Shown here piece by piece: positions 1,748-47,301 of a DNA stretch of 64,000 nt. The stretch's first letter is position 1. Each line of letters opens with the position of its first letter. Below the pieces are notes generated by a model. That model saw only the letters and a list, made by a program, of their open reading frames with translations. It did no database searches and was not told the DNA's origin. The stretch covers positions 10,917-74,916 of the forward strand of contig JACOXM010000002.1 in the NCBI GenBank assembly GCA_016176285.1, written 5' to 3'. Position numbers and translations under genes: made by a program. The DNA is from Candidatus Giovannonibacteria bacterium. GTDB taxonomy: Bacteria > Patescibacteriota > Minisyncoccia > JACPKW01 > UBA11713.

Positions 1748-3457
1748 GTGGGTCTTTTATTAAACAGAATCCGTTATGCCTTGCGCTTAATGGGTGGGAA
1801 AGAGCGGGGGATATTATTAATTCTTTCGCTTCTTCTCTTTATAGGTTTCGTTGGAACGGCAAATTTAATAAACCAGCGTTTTTCGGTTATTGTTCCGGAT
1901 GAAGGGGGTACTATTAAGGAAGGAGTGCTCGGACAGCCGCATTTCCCGAATCCCCTTTTGGCTATTGCAGACACTGATCGCGATATTGTGAACCTTGTAT
2001 ATGGAGGGCTCATGAAGCCCGATGGAAAAGGCAATTTAATTCCGGAACTCGCTGAAAGGTATGAAATTTCATCAGATGGATTGTCTTACACCTTTTTTCT
2101 GCAAAAAAACGCAAAATTTCATGATGGGAAAAAAATTACCGCCGATGACATAATTTTTACAATTGAAAGCGCAAAAAACCCCGCGATAAAAAGCCCTTAT
2201 AGAGCGGGCTGGGAAGGAGTTGGAGTAGAAAAAATAGACGAAAACACAGTACGCTTCTGGCTAAAAAAACCTTACGCCCCGTTTCTTGAAAACACTACTA
2301 TCGGAATTCTGCCAAAACACCTTTGGAAAGATATTACGCCGGAACAAATCAGTCTTTCTGGGCTTACAATAAAGCCGATAGGCTCAGGTCCTTATAAAAT
2401 TTCGAGTATCTCAAGAAATGGATCCGTTATTAAAAAATATAATTTGAATTCTTTCTCCGGATATGTATCGGAAAAATCTTATATAAATAAAATTATTTTT
2501 ATCTTTTATCCATCTGAAGTTGAAATGATAAGCGCTTATGAACGCGGCGAAATTAACGCGATTTCGGCGGTTTCCCCCCAAAATCTGCAAAAAATTAAAA
2601 GAAAGGATGGAATTGTAAAAGGACTGAATCTTCCGAGAGTATTCGGGCTTTTCTTTAATCCAAACGAGCAAAATATATTTACAGAAAAAATTGTAAGACA
2701 AGCGCTTGAAATGTCCGCGGACAAAAAGAAAATTATTAAAGAAGTTCTCGGCGGATATGCCAAAGAAATCTCCTCCCCTATCCCAGAAGGAAGCTTCGGT
2801 GCGCTCACAAATAATGATTCAATTTACGATCCAGTCGGGGCAAAAGCGCTTCTTGAAAAAAACGGATGGAAATTTAACAACGGCTCGAAAACATATGAAA
2901 AAGCGGCAAAGGGCCAGCCAACAAAAGAGCTGAGTTTTTCAATTTCAACTTCCAACGCCCCGGATCTTGTGCGTACAGCAGACATATTGAAAAAAGGATG
3001 GGAAAACATAGGTGTAAAAGTTGAGATACGGGTATTCGAAAATGAAGATCTGAAACAAAATGTAATAAGGACAAGAAAATATGATTCGCTTTTATATGGG
3101 GAGATTGTCGGCCGCGATCCCGATCCGTTCGCTTATTGGCATTCTTCGCAAAGAAATGATCCCGGATTAAATCTTGCGCTTTATACGTCTTCCAAGGTCG
3201 ACAAAATTCTGGAGGATGCAAGAAGCATCGTCTCGCGTGAAGACCGGGCACAAAAATACGCCGACTTTCAAAAAGAAATTGCCGCAGATTCACCAAGTAT
3301 TTTTTTATACTCTCCGGATTTCATTTATGTTATCCCAAAAAGTTTAAAGGGATTCGAAAACATAAATATAGTCACGCCAGCAGAACGATTTAGCAGCGTT
3401 AATAAATGGTATTTCGATACGCGATATGTCTGGAAAGTCCTTTATAAGAAAAGCTAG
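1748..3457 (+). CDS. ABC transporter substrate-binding protein, family 5 (oligopeptide/dipeptide-binding, OppA/DppA-like)
   Basis: GTG start and an N-terminal signal anchor. Region YGGLMKPDGKGNLIPELAERYEISSDGLSYTFFLQKNAKFHDGKKITADDIIFT is typical of SBP_bac_5 proteins. Confidence 0.75.
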   Translation: MGLLLNRIRYALRLMGGKERGILLILSLLLFIGFVGTANLINQRFSVIVPDEGGTIKEGVLGQPHFPNPLLAIADTDRDIVNLVYGGLMKPDGKGNLIPELAERYEISSDGLSYTFFLQKNAKFHDGKKITADDIIFTIESAKNPAIKSPYRAGWEGVGVEKIDENTVRFWLKKPYAPFLENTTIGILPKHLWKDITPEQISLSGLTIKPIGSGPYKISSISRNGSVIKKYNLNSFSGYVSEKSYINKIIFIFYPSEVEMISAYERGEINAISAVSPQNLQKIKRKDGIVKGLNLPRVFGLFFNPNEQNIFTEKIVRQALEMSADKKKIIKEVLGGYAKEISSPIPEGSFGALTNNDSIYDPVGAKALLEKNGWKFNNGSKTYEKAAKGQPTKELSFSISTSNAPDLVRTADILKKGWENIGVKVEIRVFENEDLKQNVIRTRKYDSLLYGEIVGRDPDPFAYWHSSQRNDPGLNLALYTSSKVDKILEDARSIVSREDRAQKYADFQKEIAADSPSIFLYSPDFIYVIPKSLKGFENINIVTPAERFSSVNKWYFDTRYVWKVLYKKS

Positions 3458-4148
3458 CGACCTCTCCCCGGTTTTATTCGTGCCTTCGACGGATAAACGC
3501 GCAATTTATGAAGTCGAAAGGGAGCAAAACGACCCGGAAGAACAAGGGCTTTTACAAAAATTAAAAATAAGGTATGATATAACAACCATTTTCCCAGGAC
3601 TCATTGGAAACGAGCTCCCTAAAACCTTCGGGCATTACCATCCAAGGAATTTAAGCGGCGTTGCTTATCCGGAAATATACGAAGTTATTGAAAACCGCGC
3701 CTGGTATTTGATTCAGCGGCCGAATAAAAATCAGCCAAAAGTAATCGAGGAAGTTTACCTGATCGAAACCAAGCAAAACGAAAAAGCTTTGATTCCCCCG
3801 GGCTTCGGGCATGTAACCATCAACCCAGAAAATAAGAATCTTGTAATGGCAAATTTTGTAGCAAATGGGTTTGATTTTGACTATCAAACTTATGAAAATC
3901 TCAGGGGAAGCGCTTACTACCTTCTTCACGCGGATAAGGACGAGTTAGTACGCCTTGAAAAAAACTCATATTACGATAAAGTTCCTGAAATAATAAAACT
4001 AAAGCCCAAGGAAATACCTGAATTAGGAATCACGTGGGATGTGCCGCTTTATGACATGATAAAAAAGCCGGAGACATTGGATTTTTTGATCCATCCGGAA
4101 AAATATCTGGAATTACTAACAATAAAAAACTGCTTTACGAAAATTTAA
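3426..4148 (+). CDS. Cupin-type (archaeal-type) glucose-6-phosphate isomerase-like protein
   Basis: Metal-ligand pattern GHYHP...PEIYEV and ALIPPGFGHVTIN resembles Pyrococcus cupin PGI (GHFHAK..AEVYV; VPPYWAHRTVN). Overlaps the upstream gene by 32 nt, so the start may be later. Confidence 0.5.
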   Translation: MSGKSFIRKASDLSPVLFVPSTDKRAIYEVEREQNDPEEQGLLQKLKIRYDITTIFPGLIGNELPKTFGHYHPRNLSGVAYPEIYEVIENRAWYLIQRPNKNQPKVIEEVYLIETKQNEKALIPPGFGHVTINPENKNLVMANFVANGFDFDYQTYENLRGSAYYLLHADKDELVRLEKNSYYDKVPEIIKLKPKEIPELGITWDVPLYDMIKKPETLDFLIHPEKYLELLTIKNCFTKI

Positions 4149-4155
4149 TCTTTTA

Positions 4156-4360
4156 GGGCGAGTGGCGAAACTGGCAGATTCACCCTCCCACCAATGCCCT
4201 CCTGGCGGAACTGGTAGACGCGCTGGCTTCAGGAGCCAGTGGGAGAAATCCCGTGGAGGTTCGAATCCTCTGGAGGGCACACGAGGGCATTGGTGGGAGG
4301 GCAAGCGCTTCAGGAGCCAGCGGGGTCAAACCCATGGAGATTCGAATCCTCTCTCGCCCA
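4156..4360 (+). pseudogene. Degenerate/split second tRNA-Leu-like gene whose 5' and 3' parts flank the intact tRNA-Leu
   Basis: The 5' part (4156-4179) has acceptor GGGCGAG + TG + a D-arm-like GCGAAACTGGCAGA. The 3' part (~4306-4360) has TTCAGGA-GCCAGC, variable arm GGGG-TCAA-ACCC, a T-arm with TTCGAAT, and acceptor CTCGCCC + A exactly complementary to the 5' GGGCGAG. It lacks the 3' D-stem strand and the 5' anticodon-stem strand, and has A at the normally conserved G53 position. Confidence 0.45.
4196..4279 (+). tRNA. tRNA-Leu (anticodon CAG), class II with long variable arm, CCA not encoded
   Basis: Hand-folded cloverleaf. Acceptor GCCCTCC/GGAGGGC is perfect. 3-bp D-stem. Anticodon stem CTGGC/GCCAG with loop TTCAGGA. 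Variable arm GGGA-GAAA-TCCC. T-arm GGAGG-TTCGAAT-CCTCT. Discriminator A. Confidence 0.8.
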
Positions 4361-4390
4361 CGTAAATTATTTATCAACTAATAAGAGAAT

Positions 4391-6136
4391 ATGACACCAC
4401 AAAGACAATCCGTCGGACGGATTAAAACAAGAACGGCGCCCGCACTAAACGAAATGCCGAAACAAGCCGAAGGACCCGTTTTAAAATTTCTTCCACTGGG
4501 AGGATGCGGCGAGGTTACCAGAAGCTGCTACGTTTACGAATACAAAGATGACATTGTTATCGTGGACATGGGGCTGCAATTTCCGGAAGAGGATATGCCG
4601 GGAATAGATTACATTATTCCGAACGTGGAATATCTTATTCCAAAAAGAAAAAATATCCGAGGAGTGATCGTCACCCACGGCCACCTCGATCACATCGGGG
4701 CGATTCCCCACTTACTCGAGCCGTTGGGAAACCCCGTTATCTATACGAAACCCCTGACGCGCGGAATGATTTTGAAACGGCAGGAAGATTTCAGAGGAAC
4801 ACCTCACCCGAAAGTTGAACTCGTTGATGAAAACACTAAATTGAAATTAGGTTGTTTCGACGTGGAATTTTTCCATGTAAACCACAACATTCCGGATTCC
4901 ATGGGCGTCGTTCTTCGATCACCCGCGGGCACGGTCGTGCATACGGGCGACTGGAAATTCGATCACACTCCCGTGAATGAGCGTCCCGCCGACGTAGAGC
5001 GGCTCAAACAAATCGGCAAGGACAACGTGCTGCTTTTAGTTGCCGACTCGACCGGATCGCAATCCCCAGGAAAAACAATATCCGAATCGGAAATACAAAA
5101 AAATTTGGATGAAATTTTTACGAAAGCTAAGGGACGAATTATCGCCGCTACATTTTCATCCTTGTTAACGCGCGTACAGCAATTAATTTGGCTAGCGGAA
5201 AAATACGATAGAAAAGTTCTGATCGAGGGAACCTCAATGAAACAAAACGTTCAAGTTGCCCAGGAACTTGGATACCTGAAAATTAAAAAAGGCACAGTAA
5301 TCGGGCGCGAAGACCTCGCCCATACACCCAAAGAAAAAATAATAGTCGTATGCACCGGCGCGCAGGGCGAAGACAGGGCCGCGCTTATGCGCATCGCAAA
5401 CGGCGAGCATAAATACTTGCACTTGGAAAATACGGACTCCGTTATATTCTCTTCATCGGTAGTGCCGGGGAACGAAGCGTCCGTACAAAGATTAAAAGAT
5501 ATCCTATATAAAAAGGCTGAGAAGATTTTTCATTCAGAATCAATGGACATACATGCTTCCGGGCACGCAAAGGGAGACGATCTTAAAGAAATGATTCAAT
5601 TGATAAAGCCGAAATATTTCATTCCAATGCACGGCAATTATTTCATGTTAAAACTTCATTCCGATTTGGCAATTGATGCCGGAATAAAAAAAGAGAATGC
5701 TGTTATCGCGGAAGACGGAGAAATTATAGTTATGGATAAAAATGCCATTCGTAAATCCGGGCAAAAAGCCCCCGTAAACCTGATAATGGTTGATGGATTG
5801 GGCGTGGGAGACGTTAAAGAAGTTGTGCTTCGCGATAGGCAAATGCTCGCGGAAGACGGAATATTCGTAATTATATCCGTTGTAGATTCCGAAACCGGAA
5901 AAGTTAAAGGATCGCCGGATATTATTTCTAGGGGCTTCGTTTATTTGCGCGAATCCCGCGATCTCCTCTCGCAGGCAAGGCATTTAATTAGAAAAGTAAT
6001 CGAAGAATCCACCTCGCAAATGCACCCAATCAACTGGACCTTTCTCAAAGACGAACTCCGTGAAGAACTCGGAAAATTCTTATTCCGCAAAACAGAAAGA
6101 AGACCGATGGTATTGCCGGTGATCATCGAAGTCTAA
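4391..6136 (+). CDS. rnj: Ribonuclease J (metallo-beta-lactamase / beta-CASP RNase)
   Basis: HGHLDHIG zinc motif, beta-CASP region, ~580 aa and the typical RNase J N-terminus. Confidence 0.9.
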   Translation: MTPQRQSVGRIKTRTAPALNEMPKQAEGPVLKFLPLGGCGEVTRSCYVYEYKDDIVIVDMGLQFPEEDMPGIDYIIPNVEYLIPKRKNIRGVIVTHGHLDHIGAIPHLLEPLGNPVIYTKPLTRGMILKRQEDFRGTPHPKVELVDENTKLKLGCFDVEFFHVNHNIPDSMGVVLRSPAGTVVHTGDWKFDHTPVNERPADVERLKQIGKDNVLLLVADSTGSQSPGKTISESEIQKNLDEIFTKAKGRIIAATFSSLLTRVQQLIWLAEKYDRKVLIEGTSMKQNVQVAQELGYLKIKKGTVIGREDLAHTPKEKIIVVCTGAQGEDRAALMRIANGEHKYLHLENTDSVIFSSSVVPGNEASVQRLKDILYKKAEKIFHSESMDIHASGHAKGDDLKEMIQLIKPKYFIPMHGNYFMLKLHSDLAIDAGIKKENAVIAEDGEIIVMDKNAIRKSGQKAPVNLIMVDGLGVGDVKEVVLRDRQMLAEDGIFVIISVVDSETGKVKGSPDIISRGFVYLRESRDLLSQARHLIRKVIEESTSQMHPINWTFLKDELREELGKFLFRKTERRPMVLPVIIEV

Positions 6137-6231: not shown

Positions 6232-6765
6232 TCAAATCAATTTAAATTTTTTTCTAAGATCATCATCTGGACTGATAGGAGCTTCGATATAATAAACATA
6301 ATCGGAAATATTGAAAAAGTTTATAATAAAATTTATTTCGTCTCTACAAAAATAAGGATATATAAAAATACTCTTCTGGAATTCTAAAAATCCGATGTCT
6401 TTTAATTTTTTGCGCAGAGCATCTCTAGCTTTTTTTCTTTGCTCTGGAATATCGAAAAGCACCATACGCCACTTTTTATCCCACCTTTTATTGCTAGGAA
6501 GTTTTAATTGTTTGAATATATACCATAAATTCCGCACCCTTCCCTTTTCTGTAAGGATTATTCTTTTATTATCTATTTGAATATATTTCAAAATTTTGAA
6601 TTTTCTTATTAAACTTTGCAGTTCTTTTTGATCTATCGTATTCCAGATATAATCAGCGTCTCTAATCAACTCTAATCTCTGCTGTTTATTTTTTGTAAAA
6701 CCTAACAAAGCGCCGGTGGCTAGTAGTTCTAAAACTTTTCCAGCAAAAGCACTATACCTAGACAT
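6232..6765 (-). CDS. PaaX-like putative regulator: N-terminal winged-HTH-like domain fused to a C-terminal Cas2-fold domain
   Basis: The C-terminal half (WRMVLFDIPEQRKKARDALRKKLKDIGFLEFQKSIFIYP...YVYYIE) fits the Cas2 / PaaX_C pattern (MLVLVTYDV...[24 protein letters not shown]). The N-terminus looks like a wHTH. There is no cas1 or CRISPR array in the window. Confidence 0.45.
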   Translation of the reverse strand: MSRYSAFAGKVLELLATGALLGFTKNKQQRLELIRDADYIWNTIDQKELQSLIRKFKILKYIQIDNKRIILTEKGRVRNLWYIFKQLKLPSNKRWDKKWRMVLFDIPEQRKKARDALRKKLKDIGFLEFQKSIFIYPYFCRDEINFIINFFNISDYVYYIEAPISPDDDLRKKFKLI

Positions 6766-7831: not shown

Positions 7832-9208
7832 TCACGCGGGCTCGATGCCGCGGGAGGCAAACAAGGTGAAAAGTTCCTCCTCTTTTTCGTGAAAAGTTTT
7901 TTCGTCGTTGGCTTCCAGAACAAGCCGCAAAACGTTTTCAGTATTGGAAAATCTCGCATTAAACCACCAGTTTTTGTATCTAAAAGTGATGCCGTCAAAA
8001 TAGTCTCTTTCGGCGTCGGCATATTTTTCTTCGAGCGCCGACATCAATCCTTCCCGGTCTTTAATTGCAAAATTTTTCTCCCCGGAGTGGGTGTAGATAA
8101 AATAGGGCTTTAATAACTCTGAAAGTTTTGCTTTCGAGGAAGAGATGATGTGAAGAACTTTCAGGGCGGCCAAGATAGAGCTTTCGGAAAAAAAGAATTC
8201 CTTGAAATAAAAATGACCCGACAACTCCCCTCCCAAGGCGGAATCTTCCTGGCGCATTAATTCCTTGAAAAATGAATGTCCAACGCGTGATTTATGGCAC
8301 TTGATCCCGTCTTTCGCTAAATCTTCCACTAAAACCCGGGAAGCCCTGACATCATACACGACGCTTTCTCCCGGTTGGACAAATTTTTTTGCCAAAAGCC
8401 ACAGCACGGCATCGCCTCTTATTACATTTCCAAGCTCATCCAATACAATAATTCTGTCGCCATCGGGGTCGAAAATAAAGCCGACTTCGGCTTTATTTTC
8501 GAGCACCGCCTTACGAGCATTAACTTGCGCTTCCGGTAAAAGCGGATTTGGCTCCCTGACTACCATGGAAGGATCTGGTTCGAGGTTTAAATTAATATCG
8601 TGTATTTTTTCTACGCTCTTCAAGAGTTCCGATAAAATCGGGCCCACCGCTCCCCCGCCGGCATCAAAAACGGCTTTAATATCCTTCGGCAAATTAACTC
8701 TTTCCAGAAGAAATGAGATGTAATCTTTTAGAAAATTTTTTTCTTCAAGACTTCCTTTCGGACCCGAGTAATCCGTAATTCCCTTTTTAATTATTTCTTT
8801 GATTTCGGGATAACCATTTTTTTCATTTAAAGGCTGAACCCCCTTATAAACTTTAAAGCCATTATATCTTACGGAATTATGCGAAGCCGTTATCATTATT
8901 CCTGCCGGCATTCCGCTCAAGTAAAGCGAATATGCAAAAAGGGGCGTAGTAGCGGCACCGATATTGACCACATCGATTCCCCTTTCCCGCAGCTTATTTA
9001 TTACTACATTTGAAATTTCCGATGAGCTCCACCTGACGTCTTCGCCGACCAAGCATTTTTTTCCTCCGAATGATTTAAAATATTGCGCTGCGCCCTCAAC
9101 AAAAATTTCGATAGTGTTCAAATCCAGCTCCTCTGGATATAAACCCCTGATATCGTAAGCCTTGAAAACTTTTTCGTTAAAAGCCTTTAACCTGATATTT
9201 ACGTCCAT
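7832..9208 (-). CDS. Phosphoglucomutase/phosphomannomutase family protein (possibly GlmM-like)
   Basis: Active-site TASHNS(V)RYNGFK (TASHNP motif), GGELSGHFYF sugar-binding loop, ~458 aa. Confidence 0.8.
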   Translation of the reverse strand: MDVNIRLKAFNEKVFKAYDIRGLYPEELDLNTIEIFVEGAAQYFKSFGGKKCLVGEDVRWSSSEISNVVINKLRERGIDVVNIGAATTPLFAYSLYLSGMPAGIMITASHNSVRYNGFKVYKGVQPLNEKNGYPEIKEIIKKGITDYSGPKGSLEEKNFLKDYISFLLERVNLPKDIKAVFDAGGGAVGPILSELLKSVEKIHDINLNLEPDPSMVVREPNPLLPEAQVNARKAVLENKAEVGFIFDPDGDRIIVLDELGNVIRGDAVLWLLAKKFVQPGESVVYDVRASRVLVEDLAKDGIKCHKSRVGHSFFKELMRQEDSALGGELSGHFYFKEFFFSESSILAALKVLHIISSSKAKLSELLKPYFIYTHSGEKNFAIKDREGLMSALEEKYADAERDYFDGITFRYKNWWFNARFSNTENVLRLVLEANDEKTFHEKEEELFTLFASRGIEPA

Positions 9209-46878: not shown

Positions 46879-46886
46879 GATTTATA

Positions 46887-47294
46887 GATACGCCTGTAAG
46901 CCGAATTCTGTTCACCTTCGCTTTTGCAAAGGATCGGCGATCATTTATCTCGAATCCATCTTGCGATGGAAGCTGAAGCGGCACTTCCCACTCGATATAT
47001 CGATATTCGAAATTTCGAGCGGGACACGGCCTTGCACCGGGCAGGGTTTTCCACGATATGGCGTTGCCGACATATCGATCCCGCTTTTAGCGGGAACTTT
47101 TCACCTTTTATCTCGACTTTATATCAAGATTAGTATTGTCTCTGTGGCACTATTCCCGTCCCGACTTGCATCGGGAGGTGGGCGTTACCCACTGCCTTTT
47201 TCATCAACAAGAAGGGATCTTGCCCTCGGCTTGTCGAAGGGTGTTCGGACTTTCCTCTCTAATTTTTTGAATTAGAGCGATCGCCAAGCGTATC
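46887..47294 (-). ncRNA. rnpB: RNase P RNA, bacterial type A
   Basis: The minus strand contains GAGAGGAAAGTCCGAACACCC (the P4 5' strand GGAAAGUCCG) preceded by a P3 hairpin, the 3' conserved GGTGAACAGAATTCGGCTTACAGG (ACAGAAxxCGGCUUA), and a P1 helix GATACGC/GCGTATC. ~410 nt. Two spurious plus-strand ORFs overlap it. Confidence 0.8.
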
Positions 47295-47301
47295 AATTCG
47301 C

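Follow-up and report, generated by a model that had tools for sequence, protein, structure and literature searches.

A tRNA-Leu(CAG) gene nested between the halves of another in a Candidatus Giovannonibacteria genome: a probable scar of tRNA gene replacement

How does a complete tRNA gene come to lie between the two halves of another tRNA gene with the same anticodon? This question is raised by a locus in a 64,000-nucleotide (nt) stretch of DNA from Candidatus Giovannonibacteria bacterium (assembly GCA_016176285.1, contig JACOXM010000002.1, positions 10,917 to 74,916 of the forward strand; hereinafter referred to as the window), in which an earlier note, made from the sequence alone, had described an intact tRNA-Leu(CAG) gene enclosed by a degenerate one. 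Comparison with other loci and contigs (numbered with the prefix L) indicated that the locus is probably the scar of a tRNA gene replacement, in which a resident tRNA-Leu(CAG) gene was split by an insert carrying a foreign tRNA-Leu(CAG) gene. The object is most likely a scar left by a selfish element, and not a new kind of tRNA gene.

Two tRNA-Leu(CAG) genes in one spacer

Both genes lie in the 242-nt spacer between the genes for a cupin-type glucose-6-phosphate isomerase (GPI) and RNase J (Table 1). The inner gene was the sole tRNA call in 4050-4450: ARAGORN reported Leu(CAG) at 4196-4279/80 and Rfam assigned RF00005 with 53.3 bits, compared with a gathering score of 29. These calls fall exactly on the class II gene that had been described, which also possesses the canonical class II variable arm and A73 of a bacterial tRNA and is presumed to be functional. 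The outer gene, with its pieces joined, did not show the canonical tRNA features and was called by neither ARAGORN nor Rfam.

That the flanks are halves of a second tRNA-Leu was borne out by the repeat finder, in which the pieces at 4156-4178 and 4306-4360 matched the inner gene with 88% and 85% identity, respectively (outer D-arm 4163-4178 against the inner D-arm; 4307-4352 as a direct repeat of inner 4226-4271). The outer acceptor strands GGGCGAG (4156-4162) and CTCGCCC (4353-4359) are complementary, and an identical 14-nt block over the anticodon loop (GCTTCAGGAGCCAG) is common to the inner gene and the outer 3' piece. A loose search of the whole window for tRNA D-arm plus T-arm motifs revealed no further tRNA pieces.

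Comparison with relatives identified the origin of the outer gene. Its joined pieces were 92% identical (70/76, with a 6-nt gap) to the intact tRNA-Leu(CAG) genes of L009/L030 and L055, and all 23 nt of its 5' piece recurred in the intact tRNA of L009/L030, which is syntenic, occupying the same position between GPI and RNase J (GGGCGAGTGGCGAAACTGGCAGACGCGCACGCTTCAGGAGCGTG...CTCGCCCA; close variants in L055, L018, and L032). In a neighbor-joining tree of RNase J, the window grouped with L001 and L030, the latter harboring a GGGCGAG-type tRNA, and GGGCGAG is therefore the tRNA type expected for the clade of the window. Because of its 92% identity to intact tRNAs at the same position in relatives, sequence comparison indicates that the outer gene is the resident tRNA-Leu(CAG), now split and dead. 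Its defects relative to L009/L055 comprised 6 nt missing between D-loop and anticodon loop, two extra variable-loop bases, and the replacement of G53 by A, by which the G53-C61 pair of the T-stem is broken into an A53·C61 mismatch. The earlier note was right about A53 and about missing nucleotides, but the loss amounts to ~6 nt against intact orthologues and not to ~10 nt.

The inner gene has a different affinity. Its best match was the tRNA of L015 (89% identity), a locus whose RNase J was only 66% identical to that of the window, whereas it shared 70-77% identity with the GGGCGAG-type tRNAs of L009/L030 and similar relatives, the RNase J of L009/L030 being 80% identical. Since it is closer to the tRNA of the distant L015 than to the GGGCGAG-type tRNAs of relatives, the inner gene (GCCCTCC type) is, as judged from these alignments, a foreign allele that replaces the resident tRNA.

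The insert between the outer pieces measures ~127 nt and contains an inverted repeat, perfect over 19 bp (4183-4201/4283-4301) and extending to 22 bp at 95% with one mismatch (4183-4204/4280-4301). The repeat finder recovered this inverted repeat, and the inner 3' acceptor strand is tandemly repeated, both of which had been noticed before; the 3' arm (4280-4301) holds two more partial or complete copies of that strand. This arm starts right after A73, and its sequence is exactly reverse-complementary to the leader and the opening bases of the tRNA. The 19-nt core occurred once in the window, with 0.01 matches expected from shuffled sequence. The insert has a terminal inverted repeat, present as a single copy in the window, and its flanks share 2 nt (CA..CA), which is ambiguous as a target-site duplication.

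Table 1. Coordinates of the nested locus and other features in the window, followed by GIY-YIG/palindrome cassettes of other loci.
Feature	Position	Strand	Content or remark
GPI gene	3426..4148		cupin-type glucose-6-phosphate isomerase
Outer tRNA-Leu(CAG), 5' piece	4156..4178	+	GGGCGAG TG GCG AAACTGGCAGA; acceptor 5' strand GGGCGAG, U8 G9, D-stem 5' strand GCG, D-loop to ..GGCAGA (~position 21)
Junction filler TTCA	4179..4182	+	from outer D-loop to inverted repeat; direct reading
Inverted repeat, 5' arm	4183..4204	+	13-nt leader CCCTCCCACCAAT (4183-4195) and first 6-9 nt of inner tRNA
Inner tRNA-Leu(CAG), intact	4196..4279	+	anticodon 4230-4232; A73 at 4279; CCA not encoded
Inverted repeat, 3' arm	4280..4301	+	CAC GAGGGC ATTGGTGGGAGGG
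Junction filler CAAG	4302..4305	+	direct reading
Outer tRNA-Leu(CAG), 3' piece	4306..4360	+	CGC TTCAGGA GCCAG C GGGGTCAAACCC AT GGAGA TTCGAAT CCTCT CTCGCCC A; CGC, anticodon loop TTCAGGA (4309-4315), 3' anticodon-stem strand, variable arm, T-arm, CTCGCCC, A73
RNase J gene	4391..6136
PaaX central/Cas2-like ORF	6232..6765	-	between RNase J and synthetase gene
Class A RNase P RNA	46881..47296	-	416 nt against a 367-position model
Cassette in L006	1405-1800
Cassette in L007	1290-1752
Cassette in L104	633-1022
Cassette in L106	637-1028
Cassette in L107	561-1010
Cassette in L096	490-870

The same locus in relatives

The gene order solute-binding protein, GPI, tRNA-Leu(CAG), RNase J, and class I aminoacyl-tRNA synthetase was kept in relatives. 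The nearest relative (RNase J 87% identical; overlapping contigs L103 and L001) had one plain GCTGGAG-type tRNA-Leu(CAG) gene without pieces, and the target tRNA was uninterrupted in L009, L055, and L060. A simple single tRNA-Leu in related genomes, combined with flanks free of tRNA-like conservation, had been named as what would speak against the nested arrangement; a single tRNA-Leu does occur there, but the flanks are tRNA-like, as their 92% match demonstrates.

In L006 and L007, the spacer contained, in this order, a 5' part of tRNA-Leu(CAG) (position 1 to ~41) interrupted by a palindrome, a small open reading frame (ORF) with a GIY-YIG domain, and an intact GCCGCGG-type tRNA-Leu(CAG) gene; metagenome twins of both loci were present (L024/25 and L027/28). 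The perfect 20-nt palindrome (CCTGCCTGCCGGCAGGCAGG) falls precisely where the end of the D-loop, ..GGYAGA, would meet the 3' strand of the D-stem, CGC. The ORF encodes 77-78 amino acids (aa), whose sole domain is the GIY-YIG catalytic domain (PF01541, E=1.3e-16), plus a weak SLX1 match. The acceptor types of the upstream pieces are those of intact tRNAs elsewhere, namely GCCCAGG in L006 (cf. L060) and GGGCAGG in L007 (cf. L002).

Forms with less of the cassette were found at the same locus. The GIY-YIG ORF of L064 was gone except for its last codons. In L002, all that remained was a D-arm piece, with another hairpin (..GGTAGA TTTA GCCGCCTTTGGCGGC CGC..), that abuts an intact tRNA, and the same piece was present in L007. 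The locus of L012 was nested: a GGGCGAG 5' piece with the palindrome is followed by a tandem second piece, an intact GCTGGGA-type tRNA, and a 3' piece (..GGAGGTTCAAATCCTCTCTCGCCCG, of the CTCGCCC type). Intact genes (L009, L055, L060), ORF-bearing (L006/L007), near-deleted (L064), and ORF-less loci (L002, L012, and the window) together constitute a presence/absence polymorphism with decay intermediates. Among the nine 5' pieces compared, that of the window included, eight were interrupted at the same D-loop/D-stem junction, and the insert was hairpin-forming in each. The suggestion of the earlier note that a tRNA was inserted into another tRNA gene is accordingly upheld by the intact syntenic outer tRNAs, the plain gene of the nearest relative, and the cassettes and decay forms in relatives.

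Further, tRNA identity at this locus was only loosely coupled to RNase J identity (r=0.32 over 325 locus pairs). L032 and L034 shared 91% identity in RNase J versus 68% in the tRNA, and the ORF-linked GCCGCGG allele was 97.6-98.8% identical across lineages whose RNase J was 71-80% identical. Judged from these sequences, such turnover is better accounted for by moving alleles that repeatedly replaced one another than by vertical inheritance with compensatory change. The sharing of alleles across diverged backgrounds is, at most, indirect support for the site-specific cleavage of ORF-less alleles and the one-way conversion that a homing-endonuclease cassette would bring about.

Several side observations were made at these loci. 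The TTCA filler of the window resembles the TTTA junction of a piece designated fragment A in L002/L007. In L012, a ~99-nt tandem duplication (2105-2303) was present upstream of the intact tRNA, with D-arm motifs at 2115, 2214, and 2313; a palindrome-bearing 5' piece of tRNA-Leu and an AT-rich spacer make up each unit. In L036/L037, faint GGGCGAG-type tRNA-Leu remnants surrounded the functional GCTGGGA-type gene (AGCGCGCACGTTC at 1745-1775 upstream and ..TTCGCCCG at 1895-1925 downstream), and their sequence suggests an older, more decayed nested scar.

The window neighborhood comprised UvrC, SecG, a solute-binding protein, GPI, RNase J, and a class I Trp/Tyr-type aminoacyl-tRNA synthetase. The RNase J showed 100% identity to a protein recorded for Candidatus Giovannonibacteria. 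The ORF with a PaaX central/Cas2-like domain was present in the window, L001, and L064, and absent in L002, L060, and L062/L063. The RNase P RNA match at a distance from the locus contains extra inserted sequence relative to its model. In L010, L018, L032, L034, and L060, RNase J starts only 2-3 nt past the tRNA-Leu 3' end (..GCAC TATG ACA CC..), and in the window a 30-nt spacer (4360-4393) separates the dead outer 3' piece from RNase J. The abutment of the tRNA on the RNase J start in many relatives implies, at the level of sequence, a probable tRNA-mRNA co-transcript.

GIY-YIG/palindrome cassettes beyond the locus

The arrangement of L006 and L007 recurred elsewhere as a cassette consisting of a small (77-95 aa) GIY-YIG-only ORF, a palindrome-interrupted partial tRNA, and an intact tRNA (Leu-CAG, Leu-CAA, Leu-TAA, or Lys). 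The palindrome adjoined the ORF in L006, L007, L096, L104, L106, and L107, in the form found in L006/L007 or as ~20-nt variants. In L096, a contig from a viral collection, a 5' piece resembling tRNA-Lys is interrupted at the same junction by the same palindrome; an 88-aa GIY-YIG ORF and then a second copy of the tRNA come next. This second tRNA-Lys (820-1100) runs, past the 5' strand of the anticodon stem, into a structured insert with an HNH-like ORF (..CERCGYNRCLEALEFHH..). From its sequence, the insert has the look of a group I intron that encodes a homing endonuclease, in which case two selfish elements would be stacked on one tRNA.

The GIY-YIG ORF had 462 homologues at E<=1e-8, distributed over the Candidate Phyla Radiation (CPR), Bacteroidota, and Ignavibacteria. 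All three sampled homologue contexts, from Doudnabacteria (Leu-CAA), another bacterial contig (Leu-TAA), and Paludibacter propionicigenes (Leu-TAA), adjoined a tRNA-Leu with a palindrome-interrupted partial copy; in Paludibacter, the leftover was a 3' piece with the palindrome in the T-arm. Small GIY-YIG ORFs adjoin tRNA-Leu genes in this way in several phyla, among CPR lineages as well as Bacteroidota. Exact copies of the palindrome were also present in 35 viral contigs (L065-L099), including one in the variable loop of a tRNA-Met, and in L002 (4794-4813) it lay in frame at the N-terminus of the aminoacyl-tRNA synthetase gene after RNase J (..N LPAGRQ V..). On the basis of this distribution, the palindrome appears to behave like a tiny mobile hairpin repeat. 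Some copies had short direct-repeat flanks (L067, CACAGAGA; L083, TTGCGGA) and others inverted extensions. The tRNA-Met(CAT) genes with the palindrome in the variable loop were located in L089 (2239-2330, called by ARAGORN as a 92-nt tRNA) and L066 (~8570-8680); from their sequence, these may represent a tolerated hairpin insertion in a functional tRNA. A search of the viral contigs for the GIY-YIG ORF, first with a single sequence and then with an alignment, gave essentially no matches. No published description of an association between small GIY-YIG ORFs and tRNA genes was found in the searchable literature; the tRNA-Leu-associated cassette looks undescribed and appears to be a more interesting lead than the scar in the window itself.

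Two known kinds of nuclease cassette invite comparison. Fungal mitochondrial GIY-YIG ORFs leave duplicated gene ends. Phage T4 segB, a homing endonuclease gene in a tRNA cluster, is a free-standing cassette that displaces part of its target gene (PMC2330249). The relatives resemble such free-standing homing-endonuclease cassettes in that a small GIY-YIG ORF lies beside its target and its presence varies at one site, and the locus resembles them in that flanks are co-converted or imported, dead gene pieces are left, and the ORF decays later. The target here differs in being a cellular bacterial tRNA-Leu, accompanied by a whole replacement tRNA and a palindrome-bearing partial copy; the window, moreover, is devoid of a nuclease ORF, and an inverted repeat delimits its insert. 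The Ssn family comprises small single-domain GIY-YIG nucleases that are site-specific for single-stranded DNA and paired with hairpin repeats (NTS/SRM) flanking genes (Nat Commun 2025, PMC11893778); tRNA genes are not mentioned in that paper. The ~80-95 aa GIY-YIG-only protein of the relatives, beside a conserved and also dispersed 20-nt hairpin repeat, is reminiscent of Ssn (cd10448 type) and may belong to it; the window has neither the GIY-YIG ORF nor the 20-nt repeat.

The probable replacement scar and competing explanations

The favored course of events is as follows. The resident GGGCGAG-type gene would have been broken at the D-loop/D-stem junction (~position 21/22) by insertion of the ~127-nt, inverted-repeat-bounded cassette with its complete GCCCTCC-type tRNA-Leu(CAG). 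The most likely vector is a small GIY-YIG nuclease cassette, free-standing, directed at tRNA-Leu genes, and accompanied by a tRNA copy of its own; its ORF would have been lost since. A GIY-YIG/hairpin cassette in this role is plausible for the lineage of the window, with a chance that we consider about evenly balanced if the scar reading holds; the link rests on analogy, since both the ORF and the conserved palindrome are missing from the window. The inverted repeat would be part of the inserted DNA. Its origin by fold-back priming from the self-complementary ends of the tRNA on a single-stranded copy is offered as a suggestion only, which fits the 3' arm being the exact reverse complement of the leader and tRNA start. 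Transcription would proceed from the old promoter upstream of 4156; a scan for consensus promoters and terminators near the locus gave no usable match. RNase P and 3' processing would then free the inner tRNA, to which CCA would be added afterward since it is not encoded, and the outer halves would persist as a decaying pseudogene.

Several points weigh against this account. No GIY-YIG ORF or remnant was detected in the 64-kb window when a local hidden Markov model of the GIY-YIG ORFs was run against all window ORFs, and the palindrome was absent from the window. None of the loci examined contained a homologue of the window's inverted repeat, and a comparison of junction 9-mers with 100+ loci gave chance matches only. 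What connects the insert to GIY-YIG cassettes is the D-loop junction and the locus that they share, together with analogy. Where relatives carry the ORF, their inserted tRNA is not enclosed in a hairpin and no 3' piece of the resident gene is left, and the architecture of the window was matched only loosely, by L012. In addition, the repeat is perfect while the outer gene decays; this could reflect selection on the helix, which a pure scar does not predict. Two viral-contig matches to the inverted repeat were rejected, both lying in unrelated coding sequence.

A variant of this account, which we consider improbable, is that the unit 4183-4301 is a mobile element of its own, that is, a hairpin-ended mini-cassette with tRNA-Leu in its loop, inserted at position 21/22 by Ssn-like GIY-YIG nucleases that place the palindrome in relatives. 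Copies of it could be sought with CCCTCCCACCAATGCCCTCC and its complement as query. If this unit is mobile, it would kill the resident gene while supplying the replacement and would represent a tRNA-replacing selfish element of an undescribed kind.

Alternatively, the locus could be a scar of a different mobile or recombination event without any GIY-YIG nuclease, left by a deleted tyrosine-integrase element with its attachment (att) site in the anticodon loop or by a tRNA-carrying miniature transposon. tRNA genes are classical integration sites, and integrative elements at tRNA genes are bounded by attL and attR with a duplicated tRNA 3' end. The tRNA target and the partial copy beside an intact one are features in common with such elements; the 14-nt block identical in both copies is what an att core would look like, the insert is bounded by a perfect inverted repeat with CA..CA flanks, and the window holds no nuclease ORF. 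Nevertheless, the neighbors are housekeeping genes without an integrase or transposase among them, there is no island, and the insert is only ~127 nt. Standard integrase recombination leaves no 5' tRNA piece, whereas the window has one besides the 3' piece, which does not agree with an att-site scar. The repeat occurred once in the window and nowhere else examined, unlike that of a multi-copy miniature transposon (MITE), and the sole mobility gene seen at this locus in relatives is the GIY-YIG ORF. An origin of this kind is accordingly unlikely.

It is also conceivable, though doubtful, that the scar was co-opted, the 13-19 bp helix and perhaps the outer 3' piece before the RNase J start acting in RNA processing, for example as a site of entry for an RNase III-type enzyme or RNase P/Z, timing the release of the inner tRNA or setting the 5' end of the RNase J mRNA. 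The leader-trailer helix that the earlier note had envisaged exists and is thermodynamically competitive in the folds compared; any regulatory part that it plays is putative. The minimum-free-energy fold pairs the 4280-4301 arm with 4183-4201 (folding z-score -4.96), and two conformers are predicted within 5 kcal/mol, the 19-bp helix at -102.1 kcal/mol and the cloverleaf with a 13-bp leader-trailer helix at -97.1 kcal/mol. For the inner 5' strand, two alternative partners are predicted, the 3' strand of the same tRNA and the duplicate GAGGGC at 4283-4288, and in prefix folds the cloverleaf is predicted to form first during transcription. This competition between conformers, the z-score, the perfection of the helix over 19 bp despite the mutations of the outer gene, and the tRNA abutting the RNase J start codon in many relatives, which suggests co-transcription, would be in accordance with such a role. 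In the other direction, the helix was found in no relative and has no support from covariation or conservation, relatives manage without it, and a recent origin accounts for its perfection equally well. In RNase P substrates, a helix that hides the cleavage site is expected to hinder maturation, and the 19-bp helix would sequester this site.

Far less probable is a functional nested, split, or intron-containing tRNA, in which the inner tRNA is excised and the outer halves are ligated or used as a two-piece tRNA. Archaeal tRNAs such as those of Nanoarchaeum have bulge-helix-bulge introns or are split, with a long helix joining the halves; in the window, likewise, two halves with perfectly complementary acceptor strands lie apart and could be juxtaposed by a long helix. 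However, the helix is continuous, with no 3-nt bulges and no bulge-helix-bulge motif, the host is a bacterium whose RNase P RNA is of class A, a plain gene is found in the nearest relatives, and the intervening sequence is itself a complete tRNA with the same anticodon, to which the outer copy adds nothing. The halves are incomplete, too: with 6 nt missing, the D-stem and anticodon stem cannot both form, and G53 is changed to A. When ARAGORN was run on 4100-4420 in intron (-i0,300), overlapping-intron, and pseudogene (-ps, -ps90) modes, it found the inner tRNA only, and an Rfam scan of 4050-4450 (E<=10) revealed no group I intron (Intron_gpI) and no ribozyme. The intron or permuted architecture that had been proposed is contradicted by the broken outer copy, the missing outer call in the intron and pseudogene modes, and the lack of a match to the group I intron model. 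A tRNA-Ser(GGA) at 4285-4361, reported only at the loosest setting, -ps80, and composed of the 3' arm and the outer 3' piece, was spurious, as were Rfam noise hits in 4050-4450 to an SAH riboswitch (19 bits) and flavivirus xrRNA (16.9 bits). Among 1216 artificial splice joins, ARAGORN gave 10 weak calls, three of them Leu(CAG); the one examined forms no sound cloverleaf, and the intron reading was rejected. tRNA genes of Patescibacteria do carry self-splicing group I introns in the anticodon loop (PMC13011429). The case resembles these in the phylum and in the interruption of tRNA genes by selfish elements, and the intron-like insert of L096 adjoins a GIY-YIG cassette; in the window, by contrast, the insert lies at the D-loop, has no ribozyme match in Rfam, and is not removable.

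The sequence was reproduced in independent Logan assemblies of three sequencing runs (SRR12113424, SRR12113430, and SRR12113384), whose contigs were found by their identical GPI protein. L100, which comes from a separate run and a separate assembler, covers the structure in full and reaches into RNase J, its 794 nt aligning with 0 mismatches; the left junction is confirmed by L101 and L102, which end just past the shared 14-nt block. Both junctions (4178/4179 and 4305/4306) lie outside sequence common to the two tRNA copies, so that a repeat-induced chimera would not yield them. An assembly artefact, by which two tRNA-Leu paralogues were collapsed or chimerically joined as the earlier note had cautioned, is hardly credible given this agreement of three runs and the analogous nested arrangement in the independent genome L012, even though several assemblies of relatives and two of the three Logan contigs of this organism break inside the tRNA. 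Breaks at or inside the tRNA-Leu locus were seen at the starts of L001, L004, and L061, at the ends of L101 and L102, and as a run of N in L063 (161-178), consistent with repeats hampering assembly where so many tRNA pieces lie together.

For annotation, the locus should be read as one functional tRNA-Leu(CAG) whose flanks are a pseudogene, and its odd structure as genuine, not as an assembly error. Between GPI and RNase J of Giovannonibacteria, breakage and replacement of the tRNA-Leu(CAG) gene have occurred repeatedly. If the association of the cassettes with tRNA genes is confirmed, it would link hairpin-directed small GIY-YIG nucleases to tRNA gene turnover and would account for acceptor stems that diverge more than expected between orthologous tRNAs of reduced genomes.

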